Source: Obrimoposthia wandeli (taxonomy: Eukaryota). Taken from it: DNA of 61,057 nucleotides. The position numbers and the translations under genes are program-made. The stretch covers positions 124,001-185,057 of the forward strand of contig CDROCS010001093.1 in the NCBI GenBank assembly GCA_977020255.1, read 5' to 3'. The notes under the pieces were generated by a model. The model did not search any database. It had not been told where the DNA came from and saw only the letters and a list, made by a program, of their open reading frames with translations. The first letter of the stretch is position 1. Each line of letters starts with the position of its first letter. Below, piece after piece: positions 1 through 41,559 of the stretch.

Positions 1-149
1 TATGAAAAAACACAGTCATATTTAAAAATTTATTAAAATTTATTCAATTTATTCAATTGACATTTGAATCTTAAAAATAAGCTCTTTAGTCAGTTTTGAT
101 AGGGAACAAGCAGTAGGTATTAAGAGACGGGATATTGTATCATCTAAAT

Positions 150-765
150 CGATTGGAAGTGTTCCTGGTAGAGTAGCAAGATTGTTGTTAGCTGAAACGA
201 GATCAAAGGATATACTTGAAGTGAAAAGGTTTTCAAAATATTATAAAATAGATAGTGAAGAGAATTTATGTAAATTTATAATGAATGAATTTAGTGAATA
301 TTTGGATAAATGTGAATCATTAAAAATGGTAAATTGATGTTTACAGTAAAGAGAAATATAAAATGGGTTTCCTTTGATGATAAACTGGCTAAAATTCTGG
401 GTTTAATCAGAAATACCTTTAAAACCCAAAGAATAAAAATCATAAAATTTAAAAATAAGGCAAAACCTTTAAATGCTATTAATCAGCTATATATTTATAC
501 TAGTTTAATAGAACCAACGCTTGTAGGACTACGAGTTTCCCTTTTTAGAACAATATGGATATCTAAAAGTCAAACTAAAGTTGGAGAAGTTCTCGGTATT
601 CTTATAAATCAACCAATGTATCTTCCAGTTGCTCTTTCGTTTATAAACAGTATGGAAATAAGTATTAGAGATGATTTTGTTCAATTAATAGATTTCACGT
701 ACGGAGCCAAGACAAGTTTAACAATACATTTAAGAAAACAAAATAGCGAATCAAGTAATAATTGA
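150..765 (+). pseudogene. PX: Polinton minor capsid (penton) C-terminal remnant
   Basis: ORF 334-765 has LYIYTSLIEPTLVG...LFRTIW...QPMYLPV...IRDD...LTIHLRK, the typical polinton penton C-terminus. It matches 23538-24300 in reverse. Confidence 0.8.
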
Positions 766-1075
766 AGCTTATAGTCAAAGCCAACTAGGTTGAGAATTAC
801 CATATTTTGTTGATAAATAATATGGATCCAGCTGGCTTAAAACATCATTTTTTGAAGAAACACAAACGATTTATATCAAAATTAAGAATGGACTGCCATT
901 CATCTAAGGATAATAAATTAATACCAACTTTTAAGAAGAATGCACCTTATGAACTTCATAATGTTCTACCAGACGTTGCAAATTAAATAAAAAAGTTAAA
1001 TAAAGTAAAAGTAAAGAAGCTAGAATATTTTAACGTAAACAAAAGTAAAATATTACTGTAAACAAACGTTAAACT
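743..1075 (+). pseudogene. Remnant of the Polinton core-like protein (homolog of 23183-23560)
   Basis: aaatagcgaatcaagtaataattgaagcttatagtcaaagccaa...ttaccatattttgttg...tatggatcc aligns with the start of 23560. The start codon is ATA and there are stops. Confidence 0.75.
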
Positions 1076-1084
1076 TTTGAAAAA

Positions 1085-1550
1085 TAAGTTGCACCAAAAC
1101 TGAATTGTGTATTTTATATAAAGCACTTCCACAAGTTTTAGACAATGCTTTATTTAAAGAAGTATTTGTAGTTAATTTGGTTTAAGTAACAACCATTACC
1201 GATTTAGAATTTAATATTAATAGTTCAAATAGTGATTATTTATATTTGAATGATACTTTACTTTATGTTCAAGAAAAAGTAAAATAATGCTAAGGAAACA
1301 CCTGTAAATTATTTCTCTAATTATCTAATTGGTTTTAATAAAATTGCAGTTAATGTAATCTTCGTTTGAAATGGAATTAATAAAAAATTTTCTTTGTTAA
1401 GTACAGAAGTGTTAAAACCTAAACTTGATATTTTAGATGCAAAACTGTATATTTGAATAGTTAGAACCGAGCAATCTGTTTTAATGGCACATAATATAGG
1501 ACTGGAAAAAATAATAAAGAACTACTCCAAAACTGCAAAGAATCTATATT
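1085..1550 (+). pseudogene. PY: Major capsid protein remnant with internal deletions
   Basis: gttgcaccaaaactgaattgtgtatt, gatttagaatttaatattaat..., gatactttactttatgttcaa and gagcaatctgttttaatggcacataatatagg match the MCP at 21957-23186. Confidence 0.8.
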
Positions 1551-1554
1551 TCAT

Positions 1555-2850
1555 AATTTGGAGAATTTAGTTGATGCAGATGCAAATAAATATTTATCTA
1601 AAGTTTGAGGTATACTAGACAATTCTCATGATATTATGTACTCAGCCCATATTTAAACATATGATATAAATCATATCCTTTAAGATTCTGAAACAATATG
1701 GCAATGTGTAGTTTTTTGAGGAAATCGACAGCCAATGTTACAATGTTACCTAGGTATCGCTTGTAATATAATCACGATCTCTGACTAATTTTGATTATAT
1801 ACCGCACAAATAACAAGTTTTAATATAACTAAAATTAATCCAATTTACGCCAGTTATGCTCAGCAATTGATGTACGTTTAGATCATACCAAGGGTTGACA
1901 ATTGTCTTCCTAATTCTTTAAATTTTAAAACACAATCTGGTCCAAATTGAAGAAGTTTGTTTAAATAATGTGATTAGAAATCACATATTTGATTTGAATT
2001 TAGATCGACAATAAATATATTTGTTGAAAAGACTCTTTACAAATAATTTATAATACTGAGTTATATTAGAGCCTAAGAATATTAGTACTGACAAAGCTGA
2101 TAAGTAAATATTATCGTACTGGTCGTGCAAAGCCGAAATTTATTCAAAGTATATAAACACCTTGAATTGAACAGGTATGCTTTTTGCCCAATCCCTGAAT
2201 TTGATATCTTTATATTGTAATCAGGATTCAGTTTACATAATGTCAAGTGTTTGTTGAATAAGAGCTCAGATTTAAATCCATGTAAATGTTTATGACATAA
2301 TTTACATCTTATCCTAACCGATACGGCTCTATTATCTAGATTTCAAAGTCGATCTGAATTCGTGAAATTTATTTTGATATTTAAGAAAAAATGTTTACTG
2401 GAGTCACATATTTTATGCTCCTATAAATCACATACGAATGGATTTTTAATAATTTTTTATTATTAAATTATGATAAATTTACAGTGACATCTGTATAATG
2501 TTTGAAAACATTAATACTGAAGTTATCCATGAGTTTAAATTTAGAAATCGTAGTTAATTTAACAGTAAACTTTATTCCATGATATTAGTATATAGTCAAA
2601 GCCCCTGGAGATACGCTGCGCTCATTAATCCTTTGTTTTCATACCAACGCTATATATCTTACAAGGAAATGTACTTTAGTTGTCATAAAAATTAGGAGTT
2701 CACAATTTGTACAAAAATTATGAAATGAATTCTACATATAAAAGTTATTTCATTATCTGCTAGTTTTCAGTATATAAAAAGTTATCGAAAGAAATATTTA
2801 TGTGATAAATTTATAAATGTGTTTAAATATATTAAATTATAGAAACACTA
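1555..2850 (-). pseudogene. POLB: pPolB remnant (copy A)
   Basis: The reverse complement matches about 18200-19540 of copy C (e.g. ggttaggataagatgtaa, ttcagggattgggcaaaa, ttagtcagagatc, aaaggatatgattt). It has many stops and indels. Confidence 0.8.
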
Positions 2851-4039
2851 ACGTGATTATATGAATAAATACCAAATAAAAATGAATTACCTAAAATATT
2901 AAATTGTTATTGGTTTAAAATAAAACTTTACCAAATTCCTATTGGATTTTAAAATTCGCAACACTATTTCAACTAGTGCGCTTAAATTTTTGGATTTAAA
3001 GTATTTCAATTAAACCAAATCATAAAATTTATTTTATAAAAATTTAATACATATAACTTTTTTATTATAAATAAATAGCAGCTAAAACTATATTTTTAAT
3101 ATTGCAATATATTATGTTTATCATATACTAAAATTTCACTGAGTTCTTTTTATGACCGTGCGAAACGTTTCCTTGTTAGTAATAACGTCTATATAAGGTA
3201 AAATTTACTCAAAAACACTTAAAAATTACTTTAAAAACTAATAAAATGAATTAAAAATTACTCCAAATCATAAAGTCTTGAAATTGTGCGTATTGAAATA
3301 GCGCATGCAGGAACAACTGACTCTTTGCTGCAAAGTTTCAGTATGCATCATTTCAATGATTGTTTCAGTATGAACGATTTCGAGACTGCATTTTTAAATT
3401 TCGCCGATTTCACAAGATTTTTATAAGATAGGATTTTTTAAATGTGTTTTTAAGACTTATAAATTTCAAAAATGACCAAAGTCTCCCTTACGGAGCCTCC
3501 TAAGAGAGGAGCCCTGTATGGTCGGGTAGTACCTTTGACAATAAATATTTTAAATATATCATTTGGGAAACGTTTCTTCAGAGTATTTATAAATTTCAGA
3601 GCTTCATTAGCTTTAATAAAAAACTCTGACATTTTTAATTTTTAAATCTAATTTTATACCTCTGAAAATAGTATTTAGATGATTTATATCGGTATTGTGA
3701 ATTCTTGAAATGACGAAATCAAATTTGGATTTTATTAGCATGACAGGGTATTAAAATTCATAGGTTACAGGCATTTTGAGGAAATTCATTGAGTAATTGC
3801 TGGTACCTCTTTATTAATTTTTTTTAAAAAAGATTCTCAATTCCGTATCATCAGAATCTATATTGATTGTGCTATTGAGAAATTGGGTTTTGTTCACATT
3901 CGATATTCTATTCTTCTTTCTATCACCGCTCTTCAAAGTTGTTTTTTGTAAATTGCACATGATTTAATGAGAGTAAACTGAAATTTTTGTTAGTTATAGT
4001 TGACAACTTGAATCTGATTGTATAATATAAAACTATATA

Positions 4040-4362
4040 AGTCAGTGACATCATCAACACTATTATTAAATAATGAATATAAATTATAAAAAGGAACTTA
4101 AGGAAAGTGTTGCAAACAACCAATCAAACATGTCAAGAATATAGACATTGAGAGTATTCAATCTCTAAATATATTAGTGAATATCAACAAGAATGTTAAT
4201 TTGTATAAATTATCTTTGAAAATGGGAATCAATTGCATGTTTGAACCAAAATTGTTTCCAGCACACAGAATTTTAAAGTTTGATCATATATGTGTGATTA
4301 TTCGTGGTATTAAAGATTTTGATTATTATAGTCAAGTTGAGTCTATTGTATATTTTCTGTAA
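4040..4362 (+). pseudogene. TATA-binding-protein-like remnant inside copy A
   Basis: The frame reads DIESIQSLNILVNINKNVNLYKLSLKMGINCMFEPKLFPAHRILKFDHICVIIRGIKD. This resembles TBP repeat 2 (FKIQNIV...FPIRLEGL...SYEPELFPGLIYRM...GAK) with an apparent deletion of the IFxSGK segment. Confidence 0.45.
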
Positions 4363-4779
4363 ATTGTTTATAAACAAAAATATGTTATATGATTTTTTTT
4401 GAAAATGCTTGTTGATTATATAATTCATTATAGAACTGTTAATGACGTTTTAATTAAACGAAAAGTAGAATATACTAAAATGACAGTTTTTTATAAGAAA
4501 TATAAACATGAGAGCGTAAGATTAATTGATTGGAGAAGTATATGTTTCAAGTATGAATGATATACAATTAAATGATATATTATATTAAAATAGTTTACAA
4601 AATTTCAAAAAAACAATGATAATGATGTTAAATACTTTTATTTACATGTTAAAAAGTTTTAGCTAAAAAATTCATAATACATTTTTTATATTTGCATTTA
4701 TTTGTAAGTTAAAAAACTTATTAAAAAAATCTTAATAAAAATTTTGTTTAAATTTATTTGTAAGTATAAAAAAATTCTC

Positions 4780-5170
4780 TTCTTCCTCACTGGTGTCACT
4801 GGTGGTATATGTATCCTCACTGCTACCACTGAAATTGAAGGATATGTAACTTGAGCAGAGTTCTGTTGGGTAGTAAAGTCTTCTCCATCTTCTACCGATC
4901 ACTGACTAATCAGGTCGACACATAGATATATCTGTACCCCTTATCCTTCTGTTGCTGGTGGTGATGCTGCTGTTGCTTCTATTGGTGTCGTCGTAACTAA
5001 AGGGTCAAAGGGCCCACCATCGAACTTTGATTAAGTAAGTCAATGTACTGCGATTGTGGTGGCGTTTGTCGCTGCACTGGAGATAGATCCTCATACAGCT
5101 CAACATCCATCTCTTCGTCTAGGTCTCCGTACAACTGCTCTTCGAGCTATGCGCCCATATCAACATTGTG
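4780..5170 (-). pseudogene. Remnant of Polinton gene 1 (SIM-motif protein), copy A
   Basis: The reverse complement gacctagacgaagagatgg...ctccagtgcagcgacaaacgccaccacaatcgcagtacattgactta matches 13797-13890. Confidence 0.8.
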
Positions 5171-6399
5171 GAAATGAGGTATTACAAATATTAATCAGGG
5201 AAAATAATGTTGAAAGGCCTCTGCATATAAGACATATAAGACAAATAATTTTTTCAAAAAGCATAGTAGTTAATATGTTTTTTTACAATATTTTCCCTGC
5301 CCACGGAGTCTGTTTAAACAAATTACATTTGTCTGAAAGAGAATTATATAAATAAATTTGAAATAATTATCATAAATGAATTATTAGTAACTTTGTTGTA
5401 ACAAAATCAAGTTGTTTTTTGTAATTGAATGAATGTCTAAAGCCTCGGTAGAGTTAATGAATGGAACGAGACAAATGATAATCTTGGTACAATGTAGCTA
5501 GCATCGCTGCTGTTTCGTTTTCGTAGCACCAATAAAAAAGATAACGTTCGCTTTTGATATACCAACAACAATGGGCAGCTAAAACAAAGATAACGAAATA
5601 GGGAAAGTGTTTAAGAGAGTTAGATAAATAATGGTAATCCATTTTCTGTTTTACGTTTCTCAGAATGATTTTATTACCTCAATTATTATCGTGTCATTAT
5701 TGTAAATTACTTTGTAATTATAAAAAGTTTTTAATATTTTTGGTTTCACATTGAAACATATTTATTTCAGATATTCATAAAATCGATTTCAAGAAAAATG
5801 TTAGAAAGGAAAAATTATCGAAAATTACATTTTCCTAGTTAGTAAAATGATAGAAAACCCAAATAAAAAAAAGAGACCAATATATCAAAAAAGATAATTT
5901 TATCAAAAACAATTTGAGTTACTCAATTTTTCTAGTAGAACGTTTATTTTTTCGATTATTCTCTTCCCTTAACCCTTATCAGCAAATGTGTCGACATGCA
6001 CCATACTAAGTATTATTACTTTTATTCTAGACTGCAAAACAGGCTGATTTTTTTAATTATAAATAAAATCTATTAAAAATCTTTATGAAATTTTCAAAAT
6101 GAAAATAAGGTTACATAAATTGTATTCTTATCCTAACAAATATCGATATTTTGTCAATATTCAATGTATCATTCGTTACAGGGTGTGTATAGAGTGAACT
6201 TTCAAACATGTGTGCTTAAAATATTTTTCTACTACATACAAACAGTCATAGTCAAAAACTTCAGAAATTACTATGAATTTTCAAATAAATTATTTGAATA
6301 ATACGCTCTTATTGGATTATGAAAAAGGGTTTGTCTCATGTTGAAGTATATCAGGAGACATATTTTAATTATTTTTCATTATTTTTTACTAATTAAAAA

Positions 6400-6720
6400 A
6401 TGTTTTTTTACAACGTAGACTTGGACGACGATATCGAGGAGGATTTGTATGGAGACCTATCTTCAATACAATGACGAACGCCACCACTATCACAGTACAT
6501 TGACAAACTTAGTCAAGACTCGACAGTGGTGAGCCAACCTCTTGCTACGACGAGACAAGAAAAAAGACAGCAGCATGAAGAGCAGTACCAAGAGGAAAGA
6601 TATCAAATTGTATTGACTTGATTAGTCAAAAACCGATAGACCTAAGGGAACCTCTCGCCACTTCGATTCCAAAAGTAGCAGCAGCTGCAAGAGGAAAGAA
6701 GCAATGCGACGAGAAGGTGA
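6400..6720 (+). pseudogene. Gene 1 exon-1 remnant (copy B)
   Basis: ATG at 6400 reads MFFYNVDLDDDIEEDLYGDLSSIQ*, then SQYIDKLSQDS and CIDLISQ, homologous to 13776 onward. Confidence 0.8.
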
Positions 6721-8575
6721 GAAAACTAAAACTTTACATAAAGCTACAGATTTTTTGAGATAAATTTGTAACTGAGAATGGAAGAAATTCCTATGAAAAA
6801 ATTGTTAATTGTAGCGAGTGGTACATTTCTTTACTTATATCTCATCAACTCTCACTTTCCATTGTTAGCATAAAAACAGTGATAACATTTGCTTCCTGAA
6901 GCGAGTTGATTATCTTCAAAATGAATTAATTACTGAGCAGAGAGAGCGTGTCAGTAAATATACCCATTTTCTAAATGAATTGCAATATCATGGAATATAT
7001 TTCCCTGTTAAATTAAATGCGCTATATAGATTTGAAAACATGAATAACTTGAATATTATTGTATTCAAATATAATACCGATATCTCAGTTAATATACCAA
7101 AATAATAATAAAAAAACCTTTTGTAAGCATAATTTACAGGAGCAAAAATGAGGGGACTCCGGTCAACTTAATTTTTCTCTAATATAATAATAAATTCCAC
7201 AATTCCAAATTCCAAATCTTTATCAACTTTTTAATCTTGATAACGGAGCCTTACTGATTAGGATAAGGTTTAATTAGTGCAATAGATGTTTGTATGGATT
7301 CAGATCCTAGCTCCCTTACAACAAACACTTGACATTATGTATACTGAATCCTGATGGCAATAGCTATATAGCATGCCAAAGGAAAAAGATTAAAAATCAG
7401 GGTGTATGCAGATTTTGAATCAATTTTAACATGATACGACCAATATGAGAGTATTAACCTACCGGCATCGGCCGGACTATTATTCTTTGGCCCCAGTATC
7501 ATGAATATTCCGGTTCAAATTGCATTTTAGATTTTAGATTAAAATTTGAAGAATTAGGAACTTCAATTGTCAAACCGTGGTATGTTTTTAATGCTCATCA
7601 ACCAATAATCATGACTAGCATAAACTGGGTTAATTTTAATTTTAGTAGAACTAGTTATTTATGTAGTACTTAGTCTAGGTTAGTTAGAAGTCACGATAAT
7701 ATTACGGGGCGATATTTGAGAGTGGAATACAACCTTTGTAACTTTGGCTGTTGACTCCCTTAAACACCATGTATTTTTCATCGGTTGATAATCTCAAAGG
7801 ATATTATTTGCATCATATACTTAAATACGCGTTGGGTACTATCGTGGGAATTGTCATATATACCTCACACTTCAGATAAATATTTACCTTTAACTAAACA
7901 ACTTTATACAATTTAAAAAATAATAGTATCTTTGGTAACAATGTAGAGGACTTGCTGAAACGTATTTGTCTACGGTTTTGGAATGATGTGTGTAAGCTAA
8001 TAACATATTCTAGCAAGTACAACTTCAAACATAGTTTTATAATAGCAGATGACTTGGTAGCAGTATTATTAGAAAATTAGAGCGTTTGTCTCGATCAACC
8101 GAGTTTTATAAGTCAAACAATCTTAGTTATTTAAAAACTCAGAATGTATGAGCTCCATTATATTGAATTAGAGAAATATCGTAACGAATTCAATCGTTAG
8201 ATCAAAATTGTAACTGGGGACACTGATTTTTTTTTTTAAGAATGTAGGAAAGTTAGTTTACAAAATCAATTATTACCTGTAATGTTTAGAGATAACCTAC
8301 TAGATACCCCTAAATATATCGTTAATCATCCTATACACTCTATGACTTTAGAGGATTTTATCAGGAAAATTAAAAATGAAAGCTAGGATCAGGTTTCGTA
8401 TTAGGATTGCAAATTTAATACATCCTTAAATGCTACTGTTTAGATACATCTAAAAATACATGTTCAATGAGAGCAAAGAATGTGGGGAAAACAATCTTAC
8501 ACATGAGGCCTACCGGATAGCTTATGATACTGAATGCATTGAAAGTTCCAAGCAAACTAGATTTATTTTAAGGTA
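6720..8575 (+). pseudogene. POLB: pPolB remnant with several internal deletions (copy B)
   Basis: Matches 18200-19500 and 20560-21200 of copy C, including gagagcgtgtcagtaaatatacccc and ggggacactgat (GDTD). Confidence 0.85.
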
Positions 8576-8599
8576 ATTCACCATCTAGTTGACTTTGGC

Positions 8600-9640
8600 T
8601 ATAAGCTTTAATTATTGCCGTATTCGCCATTTCGTTTTTTAATGTATTGTTAAACTTGTCTTGGCTCCGTATGTGAAATATATTAGTTGTCCGGATTCAT
8701 CTCTAATATTTACTTCAATGTGGTTTATAGATAAGAGAGAAACTGGAAGATTCATGGGTTGATCTATACCAATACCGATAACTTTACCTATTTTAGTTTT
8801 ACTTTTGGGTTATTCATATTGTTATCAAAAGTGAGACTAGCAGTTCTCCTACAAGCGTTGATTCTATTAAACTAGTATAAATATATAACTGATTAAAAGG
8901 ATTTAAAAGATTTGATAGATTGTCTTTCAAAGGTATTTTCGATTAAACCAATTTTAACGAGTTTATTATCACAGGAAAACCGTTGTATATTGTTCTTTAC
9001 TGTAAATGTCAACTTACCATTTTTAATGTTACACATTTATTCAAATATTCGATGAATTCCTTCATTATACATATTCATAAATCAAATTCATTATATATTT
9101 TATAATATTTTGAAAGTGTTTTCAGTTCCAGTACATCTTTAGTTCTAGCTTCAGCTAACATAAGTGTTCTACTTTACCAAGAACATTTTAAACAAATTTA
9201 TATGATTCAATATCTCATTTCTTATTAGCTAATGCATGTTTGCTGAAAAAATTGAATTTAAAAGCCTTTTTTTAATTCTAATGTCAACTGAAAAAGTTTT
9301 AATCGATTTTATTTAATACTTCTTTTTTATATTTTCAAATAATACTTTCACATTTTTATTTTCAAATTTGAAATAGAATTTCCTTTACTATCAAACTTGA
9401 TCAACAATATCATTTGTTTCATGTACTTCTTTTCTTTTGTAAAAGGAATATGTGAGTTTTTTCTGATAGTAATTGGAGAACAATAAAATTTAATGTCTGT
9501 TAAAACCGTTTCACATTCTCGTTGGAGATTTATAGGATTTTTCCAATAAATAATAAAGCTACTAGCATCATTATCCGTTTAGATGGATAAATATGGAATA
9601 TTTCAATACGGTTTAATGGATATTATGCAGATGTCCATGA
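8600..9640 (-). pseudogene. PX: Penton remnant that retains the N-terminus missing from copy C
   Basis: The minus strand reads MDI...TDNDASSFIIYWKNPINLQRECETVLTDIKFYCSPITIRKNSHIPFTK... and ends ...AKTSLTIH. It has multiple stops. Confidence 0.75.
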
Positions 9641-12333: not shown

Positions 12334-12415
12334 CCCCCTTGTCCTTTAAAACCGTGCATGTGTGTTGAGTGAAATTTCACTCCAAACACATGCACGGTTT
12401 TAAAAAACAAGGGGG
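12334..12415. repeat. 82-bp near-perfect loopless palindrome in the left terminal region
   Basis: Centred on GAGTGAAA|TTTCACTC (12374/12375). 37 of 41 positions pair, checked manually. Confidence 0.95.
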
Positions 12416-12460
12416 CGTCCCCCCTAACATTTTTTCGCGCCTGTTATAGGTCTGATATAG

Positions 12461-12647
12461 GTCACAGACTAGCTTGGCGATGTGCGGATGTCTCGCTCTC
12501 ATATATGTCACAGACTAGCTTGGGCGATGTGCGGATGTCTCGCTCTCATATATGTCACAGACTAGTTTAGGTGATGGGCGGATGTCTCGCTCTCATATAT
12601 GTTACAGACTAGCTTGTGTGATGGGCGGATGTCTCGCTCTCGTGTAT
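12461..12647 (+). repeat. Four tandem 46-47-bp repeats in the terminal region
   Basis: Unit GTCACAGACTAGCTTGG(G)CGATGTGCGGATGTCTCGCTCTCATATAT starts at 12461, 12507, 12554 and 12601. Confidence 0.95.
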
Positions 12648-12726
12648 ATCACTAACTACCTCGGGTGATGGGTGAAAGTCGATGGGTGATGGGTAAATGT
12701 CGGTGGGCGTTAGGCTGGTGGTGTTT

Positions 12727-13481: not shown

Positions 13482-13770
13482 GCCCGCCCCGTAGGGGCGG
13501 GCTCCATTCTCGCGAAAATAACTACAAAAACATGCGCTACAGTATCACTTTACCTCTCACAACTACAAATGTAAACGACCCGTGTCATACCCAAGACCTT
13601 AACATACACCACCCTCACCTTCGGGGCGGGCTTCATTCTTGATCTACAGTCACGAAAAAACATTACAAAAAATAAATTATTTGAATAAGAGGCTCTCATT
13701 GGACAATAAAAGAGGGTTAGTAAGATGTTTGTGTATATAAAGACACCTCCGTTCATTATTTTTCATAAAT
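13482..13770 (+). promoter_or_regulatory. Putative RNA polymerase II promoter of gene 1
   Basis: GGGGCGGGCT(C/T)CATTCT occurs twice (13494, 13623). ATTGG (reverse CCAAT) is at 13698, TATATAAAG at 13734 and an Inr-like TTCAT about 30 nt later. The block 13672-13702 is conserved in copy B (about 6285-6316). Confidence 0.6.
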
Positions 13771-13775
13771 CAACA

Positions 13776-15590
13776 ATGCCATTCTACAACAACGTTGACC
13801 TAGACGAAGAGACGGTGGTTCAACTCTATGGGGATCTCTCTCCAGTGCAGCAGCAAACGCCACCACCGTCGCAATACATTGACTTAGATAGTCAAGAGTC
13901 ATCGGTGGTGAGCGAAGGAGAAGCAGCAGCAAGAGCGAACCTGTTACAAGAAGAAGCCTCATTGGCCAGCTCAACTCCAAGAGAAGAACCAATGGACGTG
14001 AGAGGTGGGGTACAGAGATCCCAATATATTGACCTGACAAGTCAGGATTCGATAGAGAATTGGGAAGACTGTACTCCCAGACAAAACACAAAACCCAATC
14101 GTCCGGCAACTTCAGCAGTAGCAGCAGGGAGATCCAATCTCTTCCAGAATTTTGAGGCGGCAATCAAATGCCCCTGGAAATTGATCCCGCTGTCTCAGCC
14201 GGAGAAAGTCCTCGCACCAGACTCAGACGAGGAGCTGTTCACCGATGATGTACCTTCAGATGGGGAGGAGGACTTGACTCTATTCACTGACGAATGGATA
14301 CAGCCAAGTATCGGAGCCCCAGGAGCCAACGAATCGATGGTAGCAGAATTGGACGAGGACGAGTGGCACCTGTTCACCGACGATTGGGATGGGCTCACTC
14401 CCTCTGCTACTCCGAAAGCAGATAATACAATGCCTGAACCATTCAAAAGGCCAAAATCTCCTGTTAGGAGAATAAAACCGACGAATGAGGTTAGACATAA
14501 TTTATTTTAAATGTTTTTTAATTTCATTTTCAGAAACTTCAACTGGATTTGGCACCGTCAGTGACCATGACGGAGAGGCTGATTGAACCGCAATACTTGG
14601 CGAGTCAATGCAGCCAGGAGCTGCCAAGGAGTCAGCTCCGATACCTAGCGTCTCCAGATAATTTTAAGGTAATTTATTTAGATATTAAATTTAATAATTC
14701 ACATAGATGGAGAACATCCACGAAGAGGCGACGCCTATTCAACCGGTGGATAGGAAGCAAACGGTAGTTAAGAAACCGCAACGCCATCGGGTCAAAACCC
14801 TCACTCGGAAGAAAGCCAAGTTGGTGAAAAAGGCTAACCTGCCCATCATTGAGGTAAATTATTTATATGTTTAAATTTTATTAATATTCTGCAGGAACCC
14901 GTCCAGATATTTGAGGAGACTTGGGGAGAAATTACTCCTTTCTCGCGGAAACGGACGAAGAAGGCAGAGGTGAAGAAGACGAGGCGCTCGAGAAAATGTA
15001 AAACCTCAATTGGTCATTATTCTGAGGCGATGATTGGCCAGCAGGAGATTCTCCCATCTCCAGTGGACGATGGTCCAATTTTATACGAGAGGATCTCAGT
15101 CTCACCGATCGAGATAAGTCCGCAATCAAGTCAACGACGCCTGCATGAGTCTGCTTCTCCTCATCCAACAACCAGCCAGAACTTAAAGAGGGCCTGGGAT
15201 GAAGCTGGATTGGACAAATTCCTGGCGGAACAGGATTCACCGGCAATGCTTCCAGATTCGTGAGGGCAACAGGATGCCGTCTCACGCCAGCTTCAGCGTG
15301 AGAAGGAGGAGAAAAAGAAGAAAGCTCTGCGGAAGAGGAAGAGGACTTCTACGTCGGAACCATCAACATCGACTGCACATCCTTCCAAAAAGTTGCGGCA
15401 ATTATTGCCAAAACCTGAGGGAAGGACAATTGCTACAAAGCAACCGGTGAAACCGAAAAAGAAACCGGGCCGGCCAAAGAAGGAACCAGTACCGCTTTCT
15501 CCTATAATACTTAGTCGCAGGGATTTCGATCCGGATGATCCCAATGATGACTTCGTAAAAATGTTTAAAAATATAATTTATAAAAATTAG
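13776..15590 (+). pseudogene. Polinton gene 1: 4-exon, about 563-aa low-complexity protein (SIM-like YIDL motifs, acidic FTDD/W motifs, basic NLS, AT-hook-like KKPGRPKK); one premature TGA
   Basis: join(13776..14489,14534..14668,14707..14853,14895..15590). Three GT-AG phase-0 introns of 44, 38 and 41 nt keep one frame. There is an in-frame TGA at 15261-15263. Introns 1 and 2 are conserved in copy D. Confidence 0.85.
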
Positions 15591-15792
15591 TTTCATATGT
15601 TTTCTTCTTAATATTTATTTTTTTAAAAATTTTAAATGTAGAAATACTATCTTTAAGTTTATTTGCAATGATAAGTTATAGATTTATTAAACACTCATTT
15701 GATAAATAAAAATATATCATTTAATTGGATTAAAAAATATCTTAAATTTATATATATAGGTTCAAATTTATTAACCTCTTCATAATTAAAAA

Positions 15793-16155
15793 ATGGAATT
15801 CATTAAAATGAAGAGTCTGGTGACGAAGATTGAAGCAAACATCAGAATAAATGAGAAGAAAGGGGACTTAAGAAAGAGGGTCCTCAATCAAAATTTGTAT
15901 ACTGCTGTCGCGACAGAGTGGAATCATCGGGTGGAGATACAGGATAGGAGGCTAGCAGAACGCCGTCGAATCGTGGAGTGGAATAAGAAGATCGAATTGG
16001 AAAAAAGGAAGGTGGATGAAAAAAGAAGAGAAGAGATGGAGGATGTTCGGCGAGCAGCAAGAAAGAGAATCCTCCAGATTAAACCGGAAGAGGGTCCTTC
16101 TACAAAAAAATTAATTTTTGATTATTATTTTGTCTTTATTGATTATGTTACATAG
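15793..16155 (+). CDS. Hypothetical charged coiled-coil protein of the Polinton
   Basis: 120-aa ORF rich in E/K/R (RRLAERRRIVEWNKKIELEKRKVDEKRREE), in GC-richer coding-like sequence. The AT-rich tail may be a degenerate intron. Confidence 0.65.
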   Translation: MEFIKMKSLVTKIEANIRINEKKGDLRKRVLNQNLYTAVATEWNHRVEIQDRRLAERRRIVEWNKKIELEKRKVDEKRREEMEDVRRAARKRILQIKPEEGPSTKKLIFDYYFVFIDYVT

Positions 16156-16235
16156 GAGAATTGACAAAATATACCAATCTTAACATGAAAGTACTTCGTT
16201 ATAAACAACGGGATTTGCTGCAAATTTAGATAATT

Positions 16236-16725
16236 ATGCAGGAATATATCATAGATTGTGAGGCTTTCATTAACAAAAATGGGGATTATATTATAAAAGA
16301 ATTATGTATTATGGATGTATGCGACGTTTTTTCATCCATTACATTACATATTTCAAATAGATATCCCGTTTAAAAGTTTAGATTATAAGAAAGAAATTAC
16401 TAATTTATATCTAACTAATTACTTTTATTTATTAAAATGGAAAGAAGGACATAAGGCTTTTTGTGAAATATGTATTTTCGATACAATAAAATCTAATTTT
16501 GATATAGAAAATGGAATTTTTTATGTTTTAGATGAAATGGATGGCAAAAAATATAAGACTTTAAAAAAATATTTTCCTAAATTGAGGTTGAATACTTTAA
16601 ATATTTCACGTGATCATCTATTAAAAATTCCACGAAATATTTGCTGTCCATATCGTAATCATGGTGACCATTGCGCATATAAAAAATGTTTAAGTCTTTC
16701 TTATTATTACTTGACATGTAGATAA
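16236..16725 (+). pseudogene. DEDD/DnaQ-like exonuclease-domain protein with a +1 frameshift
   Basis: ATG 16236 reads MQEYIIDCEAFINKNGDYIIKELCIMDVCDVF. Removing one T from the T-run near 16328 joins it to HPLHYIFQ...NLYLTNYFYLLKWKEG...CPYRNHGDHCAYKKC. DxE..F..KEL..HYIF..WxxG is a pattern I recognise from animal Maverick accessory ORFs. Confidence 0.65.
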
Positions 16726-16926
16726 ACAATTCTTCTAATTCATAATTTTCATTCAATTACAATTAAATCTTTTGATTGGAGGAATAAAAAAATATTTTTT
16801 TCGACCATTTAACAGATAAACAATCCTTTTCAATTTTTTTAATCCAATAGGAAAAGAGCATGTGTGCATAAATTTTAGTATATAAGCAAACACTTTCTTC
16901 ATTTAAATTCCCGACTATTTGAAATA

Positions 16927-19900
16927 ATGCCTATGGTAAGAATCTATATTTATTATTTCCTTATTAATATTTATTATTTCAGATTACGTGTAACCTATTC
17001 CCTGCATATTGTGGTGCTTCGGCTCCGCATGGAGGAGAGACCTGCATGGAGACAATGTCTGCATACTATCGGACAAAGTCTCGCGGGCTTCACTTCTTTG
17101 TCTGCCCATTCTGCAGAACAATAGAGGAGAAGGAGTTTCGAGACTTCTTCGGTGAACATCGAGCTCATCTATCGTGTTTCACGGCCAACAACAAGAAGAG
17201 GGATATCATGCAATTGGTGCGCGATTCGCAGGCCGCTCCTGCTCCAATTCCAGTTGCAGTCGATCAACCCTTTTACGGTCCTGCGATTGATCTCCAGGCT
17301 CCTGATTCTGACCCATCCACTCAAATGTCTAACAATGAGTGGATGAATGACATATCCCAGTCAGATTTCGAGATAGAGCAGTGGAGCAATAACTCATGGT
17401 TGGAGACCATCGAGGAATCCGATTTCGTCGAGATGTCGGACGACAGCTGGATGGATTTCGTCAATGAAGAGGACTTCATTCCAGCTCAACTTGGATTGCC
17501 TTCATTAGGTATTTTTTATTATTATTTTTAAATTATATATTTTATTTTTTATTATATATATATATATATATATATTTATTTTTTATTCAGGAAGTACCAT
17601 GATACAGCCGTCATCCGATAGGACAGCTATGCCTCCCCCATCTCGAGTGCCTATATCGATTTTAGCACGCATTAGAGGTAATTTTTAAAAATATATTTAT
17701 TTTTTATTATATTTATTTCAGCAGCACTAACCTCTACAACAGCCGCTTCTTCATCGGCAAGGTCAGATTCAAATTCAGCCTCTACATCTGCGGCAGCATC
17801 TATTCCAGCAGCATCGTCTACACCAGCTGCGATTGCCTCAACATCGGCAACATGTCCAATAGCAGCACCTTCAATCTCAGCTGCGTTTGTGTCAACTGCT
17901 AATATAAATAGTTGTCTTCCCGTTCAATTAGGGGGAGGTTTGTCAGCGACAAACGGAAGAAAGAGGCGAGGCCAATTTCTTAATAAGGTCCCACCAAAAA
18001 AACGTAGAGAAAACGGTGCTACTATAGAGTATCACCTAAATAATAAATATGTTATAGTTAAGGTGCCATTAGGAAATGAAATTTTATTAAACGTAGGTGT
18101 AGATTCAAATATTGAAAATCTTTTAAAATCAGAAGTGACTAAATTAGGACAGGCTAAGGTTCAATTTTGTGCAACAGTGCAGTTTAAAAATGTCAATGAG
18201 GAAACTAAAACTTGGGTAATTTCACATAAAGCAACTGTTTTCTATGATAATTTTGTAACTGAAATTGGAAGAAACCTAGATGAAAAAATTGCTAATTATA
18301 GCGAGTTAAGTAGTGAATGGAATCTAGTTAGAATTCACGATGTTAGCTTTGTTCTAACAAAGTTCACTGACATGATATATCTTTCGGGGAGTTCATACAT
18401 TCCTTCACCTAGATCTCTTCAACTTTCACGTTCCATTGTTAACATACAAAACAGTGATAACATTTGCTTTCTGTATAGCGTGTTGGCCATCCTCAAAAGG
18501 GATGTAATTACTGAACATAGAGAGCGTGTCAGTAAATATACCCCTTTTTTAAATGAATTGCAGTATCATGGAATAGATTTTCCTGTTAAATTAACTGCGA
18601 TATCAAGATTTGAACATCTTAATAACTTGAGTATTAATGTATTCAAATATAATACTGATATCCCAGTTAATGTAACAGATGAAAAAATATTTAAAAATCC
18701 TTTTGTAGATGTAATTTATAGGAGCAAAAATGAGGGGACTCAGGTCAACTTAATTTTTCTCGAACAGAATAATAAATTCCATTATGCTGCAATTCCCAGT
18801 TTAGATCGTCTTCTAAATTTAGATAATGGAGCCTTACCGGTTAGGATAAGGTGTAAGTGGTGTCATAGATGTTTGCATGGGTTCCGATCCGAGCTCTTTT
18901 ACAGCAAACATCTGACATTATGTTCACTGAATCCTAATGACAATACGTTATACACCATGCCTAAGGATAAGGATTTAAAATTCAGGGATTGGGCAAAATG
19001 CATACCCGTGGAATTCAGGGTGTATGCAGATTTTTAGTCAATTTTAGCATTGCACGACCAGTATGAGAGTATTCTCCTACCGGCTTCGGCAGGACTACTA
19101 TTCTTAGGCCCCAATATTACCCAGTATCATAAATTTTCCGGTCCAAATTGTATTTTAGATTTTATGTTAAAATTAGAGGAATTAGGAACAACAATTGTCA
19201 AACCGTGGTATGATCTCAATGCTCATCAAGCAATGATCATGACAGGCATAGACTGGGTTAATTTTAATTCTTGTAGATTATGTTATTTGTGTGGAACCCA
19301 GTCTAAGTTAGTCAGAGATCACGATCATGTTACGGGGCGATACTTGGGAGCGGCGTGCAACCTTTGTAACCTTGGCCGTCGTCTCCCTAAAAAACCACGC
19401 ATTCCCATCGTGTTTCATAACCTCAAAGGATATGATTTGCATCATATACTTAAATACGCGTTGGGTACATTAAGCTCTTGGGAAATTTCATGTATACCTC
19501 AAACTTCAGAGAAATATTTATCTTTAACTGCATATACTGAATTCTGCAGTTTAAGATTCATAGATTCTCTGCAGTTTTTGAGCGGGTCTTTAAAAAATTT
19601 AACGGCATCTTTAAATGCATGGCCAATCACACAGTCAGTGTTCCCAGCTTCGGTTAACGATAAGGGGATTTTTCCGTATAAATTTGCGAAAACTTTTGCA
19701 GATTTAGAAAATACAACTGAAATCCCACCCATAACTGAATTTGAAAGTGTAAGTCTTCAAGACTATAATGAGGCCCGTACATTTTGGGTGAATAATTGTC
19801 GAAATCTTTTCGAATATATGCTTTATTATATGAAGTTAGACATTTATCTTTTAGCTGATGTTTTTGAGTCCTTTCGTGTAAAGTCTTTAGCAGAAGATGG

Positions 19901-21313
19901 GCTAGATCCCATGCATTTTTTAGTTTATCTGGTCTTTCATGGGCAACAGCTATAAAAACTCTTAAAATTAATATCGAGTTACTGCAAGATCCCGCGATGT
20001 ATCAAATGTATGATTATGGTATACGCGGTGGAATGACTTTTGTCAACAAACATCATGTTGTCAAAAATCAATCCACGGAGATTCTGTACATCGACATTAA
20101 TAATTTGTATGGGTGGACGCTTACTCAACCTCTACCTCATGCCAACTTTAAGTGGGTTTATGATGTGGATCAGTTGAATAAGTTGATGACAGATTTGGCT
20201 TCTGTTGATACAGTTTCATCCGACGTCGGCTATTTGGTTGAGGTGGACATAAAAATCCCTCCCAATGTGCATGATAAATTAGATGATCTTCCAGTAGCGC
20301 CTGTTCATCAATGCCCACCTAATTCAAAGGTTAAGAAATTATTGTTAACCCATGAAGACAAGTTGAATTATGTTGTGCAATGGCGGCTTCTTCAATTCTA
20401 CTTAAAGTTGGGAGCGAAAGTTACTCGAATTCATCGTGCTATAAGCTTCAGTCAAAACTTTGTGTTTAAAGACTATATTGAGAAGAATTCAAGAAAACGT
20501 AATTTGGCCACTAGCAAATTCGATCGGGATTTTTACAAGTTAAAAAGTAATAGCCTCTTTGGAAAAACTGTAGAGGACTTGCGGAAACGTATTTGTCTAC
20601 GGTTTTGCAATGATGAGCGTAAACTAATAACATATACTAGCAAGTACAACTTCAAGCGTAGTTTTACAATTGCAGATGACTTAGTAGCAGTGTTATTAGG
20701 AAAACAGAGTATTTGTCTCGATCGACCGAGTTATATAGGTCAAACGATTTTAGACATTTCTAAACTCAGAATGTATGAGCTTCAATACATAGAATTTGAG
20801 AAATACTGACAAGAATTTAATTGTGAGATCAAAATCGCGGCAGGGGACACTGACCCTTTCTTTTTAGAATGTAGGAATGTTAGTTTAAATAATCAATTAT
20901 TACCGGCAATGTTTAGGGACAACTTACTAGATACCCATAAATATCCCACTAACCATCATCTACACTCTATGAGTTTAAAGGACATTATCGGGAAATTTAA
21001 GGATGAAAGCGAGGGACAGGTTTCGTATGATGATTGTATTTTCCTACGCCCTAAATGCTACAGTTTACATGCATATAATAATACATGTTCAATGAGAGCA
21101 AAGGGTGTGGGAAGAAACAATCTTACACATGAGGCCTACCGGAAAGTTTATGATACTGGGTGTATTGAAAGCGTTGAGCAAACTAGATTTATTTCAAGAG
21201 CCCATAAACTGTATTCCCATAAATCAACCAAAATCGCTTTGAGTAGTAATGACAACAAGCGCTTTTGGGTAGAAAAGAAGGCTAGCCTGGCTTATGGACA
21301 CTTCAGAATTTAA
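16927..21313 (+). pseudogene. POLB: Protein-primed family B DNA polymerase, 4 exons, about 1400 aa when repaired
   Basis: join(16927..16935,16983..17508,17591..17677,17722..21313). Motifs: NSDNICFLYS/KFHYA, YADF(E)S, an endonuclease-VII-like CYLC..RDHDH..G...GAACNLCN, FHNLKGYD, FIDS, KGIFPY, YIDINNLYG, KLKSNSLFGK, GDTD, LRPKCY and RAKGV. Lesions: TAG 19035, a 1-nt deletion in the T-run near 19916-19921, and TGA 20807. Confidence 0.97.
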
Positions 21314-21956: not shown

Positions 21957-23186
21957 CTATAATATGACAGTTCTGTTTTTATTGATTTGTATTTCCGAAT
22001 CAAATACTCCGTAAATAAGCACCGTAGTAGGATTTGTTAACGCTGCATTGAACTTAATTTCTAGTCGTAAATTTCCATCCTTTGGTAATTGGCATTGGTT
22101 TATATCAAAGTCTGGTGCCAAAACAAATGTGAAGAACGGACAGCTGTTTTTAAAGTCAGTAAAAGAAATACCATTGTTTATATTTTTATCTAGTTAGCCC
22201 AAATTCCGAATAATAGATTGCGTATAAGCCAAAGCATAAGCGTCACCTTCGAAATCTGTTTTATATGTTTCGCGATAATCAGTATTTCTTGAAATTGTCA
22301 CTGAACCTACACTAAGATTGTCAAATTGAGTTGCATCTGTCGTATAATTTCCTAGAAACTTTGCAGTTTTTTGAAAATAAATTAAAATGAATTTCGGTAA
22401 TCTTACATCACCAAATATTTGATCCTTATTAAGAGCTTGTATACCCGTACCTAAAGAATAAGATATAAGTTTAGTTTCTCTAATAGGATAACAAGCATTG
22501 TTTTTTTCTATTCCTATATTATGTGCCATTAAAACTGATTGCTCGGTTTTAACTCTTCGAACATACAATTTTGCATCCAAAATATCAAGTCTAGGTGTTA
22601 GAATGTCCGTGCTTATCAAAGAAAAATTCCATTTATTACGTTTCAAACGAAGATGTACATTAACACCGGGAATTAAATATTTCGGTTGTTCAACGAAATT
22701 CAATCTCAAAGACCCACACATTTCGTAAGCTTTAGAACCTGCAATCCATTCTTTGCGAGTTGCAACAGTTTTATCATAACCAATGGTTGCCAAATTAGTA
22801 TTTTGAGTATCAGTACTATAATTCAAAAGACTTTCAATCAAAGCTTTATGAGCATAGGAAGAATTTCCACCTTCAATTTTGACATTATTAAGAGTAACAA
22901 TGGCATCACTAAATAAAGAATTAAAGATATAATTTACAGGTGTTACATCGGCATTTTCATCTAAATTAGTACCATCCCGATTTAATACTTTTATTTGAAC
23001 ATAAAGCAAAGTATCATTCAAATCTAAATACTCGCTATTGGAACCATTAATATTAAATTCTAAATCGGTTAAAGTGGTTCCTGAAACTGAGTTAACTAGG
23101 AATATTTATTCAAAGGAAGCATTATCTACAACTACTTGTGGAAGCGGTTTATCAAAAATACACAATTCAGTTTTGGCGCAACTCAT
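21957..23186 (-). pseudogene. PY: Major capsid protein (double jelly-roll, hexon-like), 409 codons with two in-frame TAA
   Basis: MSCAKTELCIFDKP...SFE*IF...EYLDLNDTLLY...PVNYIFNSLFSD...YAHKALIESLLNYS...NLG*LDK...FTFVLAPD...GNLRLEIKF...IYGVFDSEIQINKNRTVIL*. Stops at 23106-23108 and 22194-22196. Confidence 0.93.
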
Positions 23187-23560: not shown

Positions 23561-24500
23561 TTTGTTTTCTTAAATGTATTGTTAAACTTGTCTTGGCCCC
23601 GTACGTGAAATCTATTAGTTGTCCGGAATCATCTCTAATATTTACTTCAATATTGTTTATAGAAAGAGAGAAACTGGAAGATACATTGGTTGATCTATAC
23701 ACATACCGACAGCATCCCCATCTCTAGTTTCATTTTTAGATATCCATATTGTTCTCAAAAGTGGAACTCTCTGTCCTCCTACAAGCGTTGGTTCTATTAA
23801 ATTAGTATAAATATATAAATGATCACCAGCATTTAAAAAAGTTTTGCCTTATTTTTAGCTTTTATGGTTTTTATTGTATGGGTTTCAAAGGTATTTCTGT
23901 TTAAACCAAGGTTTTTAGCGAGTTTATCATCAAATGAATCTCGTTTTATATTGCTCTTTACTGTAAACGTTAATTTACCATTTAATGTTTCACATTTATC
24001 TAAATATTCACTACATTCCTTCTGTATTAATTTACAGAAATTCACTTCACTATCTATTTTATAATCTTTTGAAAACCTTTTCTGTTCCACTACAGTCTTT
24101 GGTCTCGTTTCAAGTAACAACACTTTTGCTACTCTACCAGGAACATTTCTAACCGATTTAGATGAGACAATATCCCGTTTATTACGAGCTACTGTTTGTT
24201 CACTATCAAAACTGAATTGAAGAGCTTCTTTTTTAGATTCAAAATTAATTTTAATAACTTGAAGAAATTTTAATCGATTTTTAAATCTGACTTTGTTATT
24301 TTCAAATATTACTTTCACTTCTTTATCTATACAATTGTAATAGAATTATCCTTTACTATCAAACCCGATCACAACTTTAGTTGTTATTTCATTATCAACT
24401 TCTTTTGTAAACGAGATATGTGAGTTTTTTTTGATAGTAATTGGAGAATAATAAAAAGAAAATTCTGTTAAAGCCGCTTCCCATTCTCCTTGGAGATTTT
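23538..24500 (-). pseudogene. PX: Minor capsid protein (penton) lacking its N-terminal ~35 aa; one stop and two frameshifts
   Basis: Starts NLQGEWEAALTEF (penton LxGxWEVAL motif). TAA at 24346-24348, frameshifts near 23835 and 23663, ending LTIHLRKQNGESSNN* at 23538. Confidence 0.85.
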
Positions 24501-24942
24501 TATTATTTATATTATTTTGTTTAAATAAAGATTGAACTTGCTTATTATAAAATTCTTTTCCTAAATCAGTTTGCACATTTTGTGGAATGTCCTCTTTTAA
24601 TATTTCTTTAATGGCTTCAAGCATAGCTATTGAAGACTTTGCTTTAACTGGAATTGCACGAGCAAACCTGCTAAATACATCAATACATGTTAAAATATAT
24701 CGATATCCCTTATTAATGGAAGAATATGGAATCATCTCCATCAAATCCATTTGCCATAAATTATTAGGACCGCTGGTTTTGTAAGCTCTAGTTGGAAACC
24801 TTCTTCTCATTGGCTTGTTCAGACTGTAGGCTAACTGGTTGCTCAGCCATTTCTGCGTTTTCTTGTATTTTTGTTTTGTTCTTTTTGCTAATTTTGAAAC
24901 TCCGGTGCAGCCAATTGGATCTTTTGGGTTGAACCATATCTT
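24500..24942 (-). pseudogene. INT: Retroviral-like (rve) integrase, N-terminal half only; start codon lost
   Basis: KIWFNPKDPIG...KWLSNQLAYSLNKPMRRRFP...LWQMDL...LTCIDVFSRFA...QTDLGKEFYN. The third catalytic residue (VERFN) and the C-terminus are deleted. Copy E shows ATG GAG at the position where C has a 5-nt deletion. Confidence 0.93.
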
Positions 24943-38631: not shown

Positions 38632-40298
38632 CATTAGAAGAAACAGTGATACTAATAGTTAGATGGATGCATCGATGTTAGGCCACATTAAAATGCATCT
38701 CATTTTAAGTCTGTACATATTACAACAGATTCTTACAGAAAAAGGTTGTAAGATTTTTCAGAATGTTTACTTATGTTATGTCAAAAAAATTAGACTATCA
38801 CAACCACAAGAAAATGAAAGATCTGTTTCTCAAAATAAGTTTCAAAATGACTTTTTATTTCTTCGTTACCTAACGTTATAAGATAAGCGTGTGAACTGTT
38901 ACAAGAGGTGGTGGATTAGAAAAAAATACGAAAATATGTGTTACGGAATTTTTGGACATTTTCTTAGCAGACATTCATCTGAGAATTTTCTTTAAAGAGT
39001 GCATCCTTTTTTTTCTGATTAACCTTTTGTCAGCTGTGTTTTTCTCCGTGTCGGCTGTGTCCAGTTTATTTTTTCAAACCCTTTTAAGTTGGAATGAAAC
39101 TTATTTTGCTCTTAACCTTGGCTCACTAAAGTTAATTCATGGCCTGAATTTGGCTCTGATCAATAAGGGGAGAAACACTGAATACTTACATTTTTTTAAT
39201 TCTATGTTAATACTGACTGTGAAAAATTGAATTTAAGTTGGGCATAGTTGAATATTTGATTTTTAATTTGAGTCTAATGCACAAATGAATCTCACAGAAT
39301 ATACAAAATTGATAAAAAATAAAATTCAAACTTAACTGTTAGAATTAGTATTATTATTCATGTGTTTAGTGTATCAATAAAAAGCACCATTCTAAGAAAA
39401 TAGATTTTTCGATTTTAAGCTGATGAAGAGTTTATGCGTTGGTCTTAAACAGTGATTTTTAATTATAATGAATATGCCTCCCTGAAATAAATCTCTAATT
39501 GATCACTATTGAGTGATTCTAATATTTTCTAAATATTTGAAGCTTCCACTGGAGGTACTCAATCCCAGTTTCAATCGATGGTAGGACATCTGATTGCCTA
39601 CATATTTAACTATACTTAACTGAAGGTTAAAATATTTGTAAAGTTTTAGTGATGAAGCAGTTAGGCACAAAACAAAAAAAATAAAAATTAGGTATCCTAA
39701 AGAAAAATAAAAAAAACACAATATAATCAATACAATATAGTGTGTATTCTTACTATAACTTATGGAACAAACGTTCCTTGCCTTTGCATAAGTTAAACGC
39801 AATTATAAATGTATTCAACAAAATGTTAAAGTCGAAAATTGAAGTTCGTATTTAAAAGGAAATTAGAACATAATCTAAAATTTCCGAAGATAATTAAAAT
39901 AATATAAAAAAATAAAACAGTTTTAATATAAAGTTAGTCACTTTAAAAGAAAAAGGAAATAATCCAAAAAGATTGTTTACCAATTTTATTTTAAAAATAC
40001 AAGAAATAAAAACCTTTTTGTAAAATAAATTTCTGAAAACCCTATTACTAAAATTAAACAAAACATTTAAAAGCTGAAAATAAAATATGCTAGATAGCAA
40101 AAATAAAAACTACAAATTTCGAAACAACCATACTGAAAAAACACGAGAATTATAATCGAACATAGAAAACAAATCTAGTAAAATTTTATAAAGATGGTAA
40201 AGAAACTACCGCACTATAAGTTAGAAGCTTACACTCAAATCTTTACTACAAAAAAAACCTACCTAGATTTAAATTTTCTATTTATTCAAATTATTGTA

Positions 40299-41250: not shown

Positions 41251-41559
41251 TACATGTATACAGGGGATTTTATGAACAAGTAATGCCGGTAAGATATTTC
41301 CGGTTTCTGATTACATAACTGTAATATTAGATATATCAGTCTATAACATGTAGACAAAATTACAGTTTTGAATTTATAACTTTTAAATTATAACCTATAT
41401 GTTTAACAAGAGTCATATTTTAAGTTATAACGTTGCTTCATATTTAAGGGTAGTTAAAGGCAAGAGTTAAAATTAACTTTTAGGCAAAATATTTGGAAAT
41501 TCTTGCAAGACCAAGGAACTGGTTTGGTGCTTCTGCTGAGATACGTTAAACATCCTTGG

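Follow-up and report, generated by a model that had tools for sequence, protein, structure and literature searches.

Core genes of Polinton/Maverick elements are described as uninterrupted: those of vertebrate Mavericks lack introns (PMC8097293, citing Kapitonov and Jurka 2006), and in nematode Mavericks introns were reported in cargo genes only (10.1101/2022.07.12.499685). The element described here does not fit that picture. It is a decayed Polinton/Maverick in 61,057 nucleotides from Obrimoposthia wandeli (contig CDROCS010001093.1, positions 124,001 to 185,057; this whole stretch is called the window below), and it has three predicted introns in its polymerase gene, pPolB, and one in its protease gene. 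We put the probability at about 0.8 that the three AT-rich segments at the 5′ end of pPolB are ordinary, constitutively removed introns and that a single polyprotein runs from a zinc module to the polymerase. Statements about published systems, here and below, refer to the accessible parts of the cited reports.

The element resembles the described Polintons (Alpha-class adintoviruses) in its PF03175 polymerase, OTU-like Cys/His motifs, rve integrase and putative remnants of a protease and an ATPase, as well as in terminal inverted repeats starting with AG and a 6-bp target duplication found in a copy of the same family (10.1101/2024.03.18.585575; PMC8502044). It differs in the predicted introns of pPolB and in an extra Cys/His module ahead of the terminal protein. 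Neither a spliced pPolB nor such a module is mentioned in the accessible text of the nematode pPolB, adintovirus and polinton-like virus literature; Repbase or subscription journals may hold multi-exon Polinton annotations. The P element transposase of Drosophila is also encoded by a four-exon mobile-element gene, with an N-terminal zinc module and a truncated product on intron retention (PMC7776569). There, however, the retained intron (IVS3) comes last of the three, and its product is a proven 66-kDa repressor that keeps two-thirds of the transposase (PMC7776569), whereas in the window gene the stop lies in the middle intron, this intron is lineage-specific, the tail is variable and no sign of regulation was seen. 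Spliceosomal introns (introners) have been reported inside maverick-polinton-like elements of dinoflagellates (10.1101/2025.03.18.643946). Those are mostly post-integration transposon insertions, unlike the introns of the window, which are short, of low complexity, family-wide and flanked by coding sequence under selection.

Gene structure of the pPolB 5′ end

A preliminary description of the locus had proposed four exons, in which a short ATG exon, a Cys/His-rich exon and a small third exon are joined to the polymerase exon. Its coordinates were recovered as given (listed with the intron phases in Table 1), removal of the introns restores the frame, and the splice sites are conserved across copies. 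The segments have the hallmarks of spliceosomal (U2) introns, namely GT..AG ends, a pyrimidine-rich acceptor and restoration of the frame on removal, and their guanine plus cytosine (GC) content is 4–15%, against 44–50% (about 48%) in the exons. Exon 2 occupies its own 187-codon stop-to-stop frame. Exon 4 lies in the frame of the open reading frame (ORF) at 17682–19037, which contains the terminal-protein and vOTU regions; the first Met of this frame is codon 217, at 18372, which lies past the terminal-protein region. The terminal-protein and vOTU regions were labelled by position and motif after 10.1101/2024.03.18.585575, and the vOTU-like Cys and His motifs were kept in all six aligned sequences.

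The donor of intron 2 (GTATTT) is further from the usual GTAAG than are the donors of introns 1 and 3. The NAGNAG-type acceptor reported for intron 3 was found as two AG three bases apart, the second of which was kept in 40 of 43 copies; alternative use of the pair would alter one residue in a free linker. A TATA-like box precedes the donor of intron 1 by 56–57 nt in single copies of families A (that of the window), B, C and D, while the same pattern had no match in the family-E copy or in the metagenome locus L177.

Splice-site conservation and selection

All six splice dinucleotides were intact in 18 of the 19 copies closest to the window. A wider comparison mapped 43 of 46 family copies, among them sub-lineages that are as little as about 75% identical across this region. 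The donors and acceptors of introns 2 and 3 were kept in 41, 38, 43 and 41 of these 43 copies, and exon 3, previously noted as a symmetric exon of 87 nt, has that length in 36 of them. Intron lengths drifted, from 56 to 119 nt in intron 2 (75 nt in 22/43) and from 31 to 70 nt in intron 3. The TA expansion noted in intron 2 is present in the window copy but is not typical of the family.

The ratio of nonsynonymous to synonymous differences (pN/pS) was calculated pairwise over 47 sequences, leaving out two near-duplicates (L034, L050) and four partial sequences (L023, L028, L032, L043). In the Cys/His part of exon 2 it was 0.22–0.35 in the predicted frame, against 1.0–2.1 in the other two frames, so that the module is constrained as strongly as the vOTU region (0.28–0.44). 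Constraint was weak or absent in the acidic part of exon 2 (0.58–0.89) and in the Ala/Ser linker (0.78–1.48). It was likewise weak or absent in exon 3, which gave 0.59 in divergent pairs (1.05 and 1.71 in the other frames) and 0.89–0.90 in closer pairs. Indels shared by at least three copies were multiples of three in 7 of 7 cases in exon 2, including a gain of 69 nt in 12 copies, and in 7 of 11 cases in exon 4, compared with none of seven in intron 2. Exon 3 has a single shared indel, the loss of one base from a run of C in four copies, which does not keep the frame. Since AT-rich segments with fixed GT..AG ends occur at the same sites and have coding selection on both sides, they must have been present while the element was still copying itself.

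Table 1. Predicted features of the pPolB gene. Positions are those of the window unless a locus is named.
Feature	Position	Strand	Description
TATA-like box	16879..16885	+	57 nt 5′ of the intron-1 donor
Exon 1	16927..16935	+	Met-Pro-Met with start codon; first ATG kept in 19/19 close copies; short ATG exon also in families B–E and L177
Intron 1	16936..16982	+	47 nt, GC 0.15, phase 0; GT..AG in 19/19 close copies
Exon 2	16983..17508	+	526 nt; Cys/His module and linker
Cys/His module in exon 2	16983..17180	+	C-x6-C-x5-H-x4-C, helix, C-x2-C-x10-F-x3-H-x2-H-L-x2-F; two predicted zinc sites
Remainder of exon 2	17181..17508	+	Pro/Ala stretch and acidic Trp-containing repeats; linker specific to family A
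Intron 2	17509..17590	+	82 nt, GC 0.04, phase 1; in-frame stop 17529–17531
Exon 3	17591..17677	+	87 nt, symmetric (phase 1-1); linker
Intron 3	17678..17721	+	44 nt, GC 0.07, phase 1; acceptor with two AG three bases apart
Exon 4, start	17722..18008	+	Ala/Ser linker, then basic patch RKRR-x7-PPKKRR (17958–18008) resembling a nuclear localisation signal (NLS)
pPolB body	18045..21313	+	terminal-protein-like region, vOTU-like region (Cys, His motifs), exonuclease with endonuclease-VII insert, polymerase; broken here
Predicted phase-1 intron in polymerase core	L126:3849–3959 (family E); L130:3719–3847 (family D)		no counterpart in family A

Relatives in the same genome and in metagenomes

Four distant families (B–E) of the same genome were reached through older Polinton fragments in the window. 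They share a layout of a short ATG exon, a phase-0 intron 0–2 codons before the first Cys, and then a single frame that encodes the module, a linker of low complexity, a basic patch and the terminal-protein region. The family-B intron equivalent in place to intron 1 is 30–48 nt long, with AG in 28 and a GTAA[GT] donor in 27 of 30 loci, and the N-terminal region of pPolB follows the module on the same strand in 24/30 loci without an AT-rich gap. Five of 13 stretches from families D and E keep the frame open for 837–888 codons, starting at the module and running into the polymerase; the others are cut by decay. Introns 2 and 3 are without counterpart in families B–E. Families D and E instead have a GT..AG segment of 111–129 nt, in phase 1, which interrupts a conserved polymerase motif that is read unbroken in family A.

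The module was found in four (L139, L140, L142 and L177) of 47 metagenome loci having a related vOTU region, many of the 47 contigs being too short or too distant to judge. L139 and L140 encode it in the same frame as the regions downstream. The introns number four in L177, where the order of the window is repeated with one more and a symmetric exon of 84 nt is present, and five in L142, one of them inside the module. The introns of both loci are 42–62 nt long, and all joined frames are without a stop. Four separate acidic or basic mini-exons of 63–84 nt in L142 (1590–2243), divided by introns of 42–46 nt, resemble each other, which suggests duplication of exon-intron units. The basic patch described as NLS-like also precedes the terminal-protein region in families B, D and E and in L139, L140 and L177. 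Over the clade, pPolB has between zero and five predicted introns at lineage-specific sites, one of them inside the polymerase core.

That distant families and metagenome relatives have the module in frame with the terminal-protein and vOTU regions indicates that it is the normal N-terminus of pPolB in this clade. The joining of exon 2 to pPolB, as first proposed, is supported by these one-frame relatives together with the frame-specific selection and the lack of an early Met in exon 4. A tree of the terminal-protein region, built from 27 of 31 candidates after four weak matches were dropped and with an unreliable row for L057, grouped families B–E (95/86) apart from family A; its backbone is unsettled and intron gains and losses could not be ordered on it. 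Most of the introns lie near the start or in the free linker, where gain or loss would cost little, each lineage having its own set.

Two further loci were recorded. L085 is a rearranged locus with three successive module pieces from two families, each after an intron-1 acceptor. In L139 a separate gene 5′ of pPolB (61–735) starts with a Cys/His module followed by a coiled-coil-like acidic region, and the protein P0051 looks similar.

The Cys/His module

A profile of 13 sequences from the same genome matched 59 proteins among 1.84 billion at E<=0.001. Three of the matches (P0031, P0046 and P0055) look like chance repeats, and the ten clusters that were looked up gave no informative name. When 13 module proteins were compared with the terminal-protein region of the window, nine matched well and four weakly; P0030 also matches PF03175, and P0060 is a protein of 1286 aa with the module at its start. 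Many module proteins carry one to three tandem copies, and P0020, P0023 and P0038 have classical C2H2 fingers ahead of two or three tandem modules. C41, C44, F55, H59, H62 and L63 were invariant in the 38 aligned sequences, and an upstream cluster of the form C-x5/6-C-x4/5-H-x2/6-C was common. Ten short proteins (P0022, P0025, P0026, P0034, P0036, P0037, P0039, P0040, P0043 and P0054) end just past the module with Gly and a tail rich in Phe/Ile/Tyr, as would be expected from read-through into a phase-1 AT-rich intron.

Sequence searches of Pfam, NCBIfam and PDB named no family for the module, and no member of alignments A1 (13) or A3 (19) matched PF00096 or PF02892. A presumed likeness to BED fingers was not confirmed. 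Neither exon 2 nor alignment A3, the latter compared with longer proteins, gave a match in word-based protein searches, which are weak tools for this purpose; scans of viral contigs with alignments A1 and A5 gave pattern matches and no confirmed relative. AlphaFold models of the module consist of a helix, a hairpin, a strand and a helix, with a mean predicted local distance difference test score (pLDDT) of about 70. The best Foldseek rows were DNA-bound Kaiso C2H2 fingers at a non-significant E of 0.86, and those of VIA were zinc-finger regions of Serrate/ARS2 at a weak Z of 3.0–3.5; a fold search of viral models reached E 0.62 at best, and a weak sequence match to HACE1 had E 0.02. With C2H2 and BED fingers and the adintovirus ‘Oncoid’ and ‘Ziftr’ genes the module shares CxxC and His ligands and a predicted strand-strand-helix in its second half. 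It differs from them in its C-x2-C-x14-H-x2-H spacing, in the extra Cys/His cluster upstream and in being mostly part of pPolB and not a free gene. The metal binding thought likely for this N-terminus is supported by the comparison, and from the ligand count the module quite probably binds two zinc ions. That it binds DNA is a guess which the tandem arrays and the C2H2 fusions favour, though one with slightly less than an even chance of being right.

Alternative explanations

Removal of the three AT-rich segments as ordinary introns has to be weighed against other readings of the same gene. The preliminary description had gone on to propose a splicing switch between a small regulator and the replicase. 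In such a scheme regulated retention of intron 2 or skipping of exon 3 would make family A alternate between a 185-aa zinc-module protein, acting as a repressor or competitor, and the full replicase, in the manner of P-element IVS3. The short product would keep the whole predicted binding module, as the P repressor keeps its THAP domain (PMC7776569). Retention would indeed lead to a stop after seven more codons, giving 185 aa where about 180 had been claimed. The stop is at codon 7 in 21 of the 37 scored copies and at codons 3–14 in 11 more, so that it is early in 32 of 37, and at codon 49 or beyond in five (in 10 of the 47 copies the donor context was not intact). Exon 3 is symmetric, the unrelated locus L177 repeats the layout with its own symmetric exon, the donor of intron 2 is weak-looking, and stand-alone module proteins exist, as in the upstream gene of L139. 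However, introns 2 and 3 are specific to the lineage, being absent from families B–E, neither the length nor the sequence of the retained tail is conserved, and AATAAA was not found in any intron 2 with a mapped end. Stop codons are expected anyway in DNA of 4% GC, and the short product would be without the basic patch. Nonsense-mediated decay is the usual outcome for a stop that is followed by a further intron and about 3.8 kb of coding sequence, so that the stop looks like a decay signal. These comparisons do not support the switch, and we regard it as improbable. A broader proposal is scarcely less doubtful: that the clade repeatedly gained host-type introns in its replicase while mobile and caps its terminal protein with a two-zinc DNA-binding module, and that in some lineages (the family of the window and L177, both arranged as intron-module-intron-cassette exon-intron) splicing of the linker introns gates replication by freeing the module as a competing repressor.

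That exon 2 is instead a separate small gene, an ‘Oncoid’-type CXXC gene sensu Starrett et al., with pPolB starting further down on its own, is very improbable. Its own 187-codon frame, the usual position of adintovirus CXXC genes 5′ of PolB (PMC8502044) and the module-bearing gene apart from pPolB in L139 would agree with it, but families B–E, L139 and L140 encode the module and the terminal-protein region in one frame, the first Met of the exon-4 frame comes only at codon 217, divergent copies do not share the Mets of exon 3 and the exon-2 translation contains no LXCXE motif. Still less credible, and largely refuted, is the idea that the AT-rich segments are assembly artefacts or post-integration insertions (a microsatellite or small element) in an intronless gene. 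The copy is decayed, intron 2 contains a TA run, and introners are known to enter integrated Polinton-like elements in dinoflagellates (10.1101/2025.03.18.643946), yet 43 mapped copies, taken from separate loci, agree in the positions of the segments, which have fixed GT..AG ends and coding selection on both sides. The gene model could also be right while the module binds protein (a host factor, a second copy in dimerisation, or a partner in ubiquitin-related traffic) and not DNA. We hold this as a tentative possibility, to which the lack of a clear DNA-binding fold match, the Serrate/ARS2 and HACE1 rows and the adjoining vOTU domain would point; those rows are at noise level, however, and tandem copies and a C2H2 fusion would be more typical of nucleic-acid binders.

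Several observations weigh against our preferred account of three constitutive introns and a single polyprotein headed by a zinc module. The window copy is decayed and may be untranscribed now. The pairs used for pN/pS are not independent, and in the 19 closest copies alone the single-copy changes were near neutral and uninformative on selection. Reads from four runs of one sample covered window 13700–17670 evenly and very deeply, in a genomic-like manner, and none of the 15 listed joints (of 216) matches an intron, which in such reads is neutral on splicing. The module also heads a non-polymerase gene in L139 and so is not polymerase-specific, and its first Cys cluster is absent or replaced in P0015, P0016, P0038 and P0059. 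The AlphaFold result that supports its helix, hairpin, strand and helix leaves the first metal cluster poorly predicted, and the fold searches gave no significant match, which does not make the fold new.

Proposed expression and function

The host would very probably transcribe the integrated element from the TATA box, with the host spliceosome removing the three introns. The resulting polyprotein would consist, in order, of the two-zinc Cys/His module, a flexible linker, the NLS-like patch, the terminal protein, the vOTU protease, the exonuclease and the polymerase. Cleavage by vOTU between the terminal protein and itself was hypothesised by Krupovic et al. (10.1101/2024.03.18.585575). If it takes place here, the terminal protein linked to the genome ends would retain the module, the linker and the basic patch. 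The basic patch and the module on the terminal protein would likely aid nuclear entry. It is conceivable, at a little below even odds, that the module serves as a DNA-binding tether that helps the primer-polymerase to find the terminal repeats or nuclear chromatin. Just inside the left terminal repeat lie an internal hairpin of about 82 nt (12334–12415) and 47-nt tandem repeats (12451–12680), which are candidate binding sites for the module.

The element and its genomic context

The element extends from 12295, the left edge of homology to other copies, to about 27 kb of the window, within an AT-rich eukaryotic assembly of 1.35 Gb. Its right end was not found within the window. The inverted ends AGTAGG..CCTACT and the 6-bp target duplication were found in a family copy on contig C2101. 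The family is a high-copy one: all 150 scored exon-2 protein matches were 96–100% identical, a number that is a lower bound and not a copy number. On the plus strand are pieces of the polymerase with the endonuclease-VII insert; in a Pfam search of the window two pieces matched PF03175 (E 5.6e-12 and 3.2e-16), and PF02945 was matched in the pPolB body (E 2.2e-05). The polymerase of the window copy is broken by stops at 19035–19037 and 20807–20809 and by a frame change near 19.9 kb. The minus strand carries the rve integrase (PF00665, E 7.2e-13, 24349–24942) and weak fragment matches to Pox_A32 (packaging ATPase, E 0.023) and Peptidase_C48 (adenain-like protease, E 0.064). An ORF at 22194–23105, for which Pfam, NCBIfam and PDB sequence searches gave no match, may be the capsid gene.

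In the protease gene a 42-nt AT-rich GT..AG segment (21950–21909, minus strand) lies just past the likely start codon, making this a second core gene with a predicted intron. Upstream of pPolB, a gene of the same element (13776–15590, plus strand) has three predicted phase-0 introns (14490–14533, 14669–14706 and 14854–14894). Its product is acidic, then basic, and of low complexity, with one internal stop in the last exon and no Pfam family. A 142-codon frame with a Cys/His tail (16297–16725, plus strand) is located just 5′ of the pPolB promoter; it is about 42% conserved in families D and E and belongs to no Pfam family. Older fragmented Polinton copies are found in the window at 1–9540, 40260–42200 and 53700–54700, in both orientations and with 72–92% identity to the main element.

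Significance

The gene structure, a Polinton pPolB with predicted spliceosomal introns and an N-terminal Cys/His domain of an unnamed family, is well supported by the comparison of sequences. Annotation treats Polinton core genes as single open frames, so that ORF surveys would miss the true N-terminus of these polymerases or list it as a gene of its own; such surveys could also score active intron-bearing elements as broken. The module represents a small unnamed domain family with dozens of relatives, and its properties can be tested directly. The clade offers for study many closely spaced intron gains or losses in one gene. Introns kept over hundreds of copies would mean that the replicase depends on nuclear transcription and splicing by the host, which bears on both the replication and the control of these elements.

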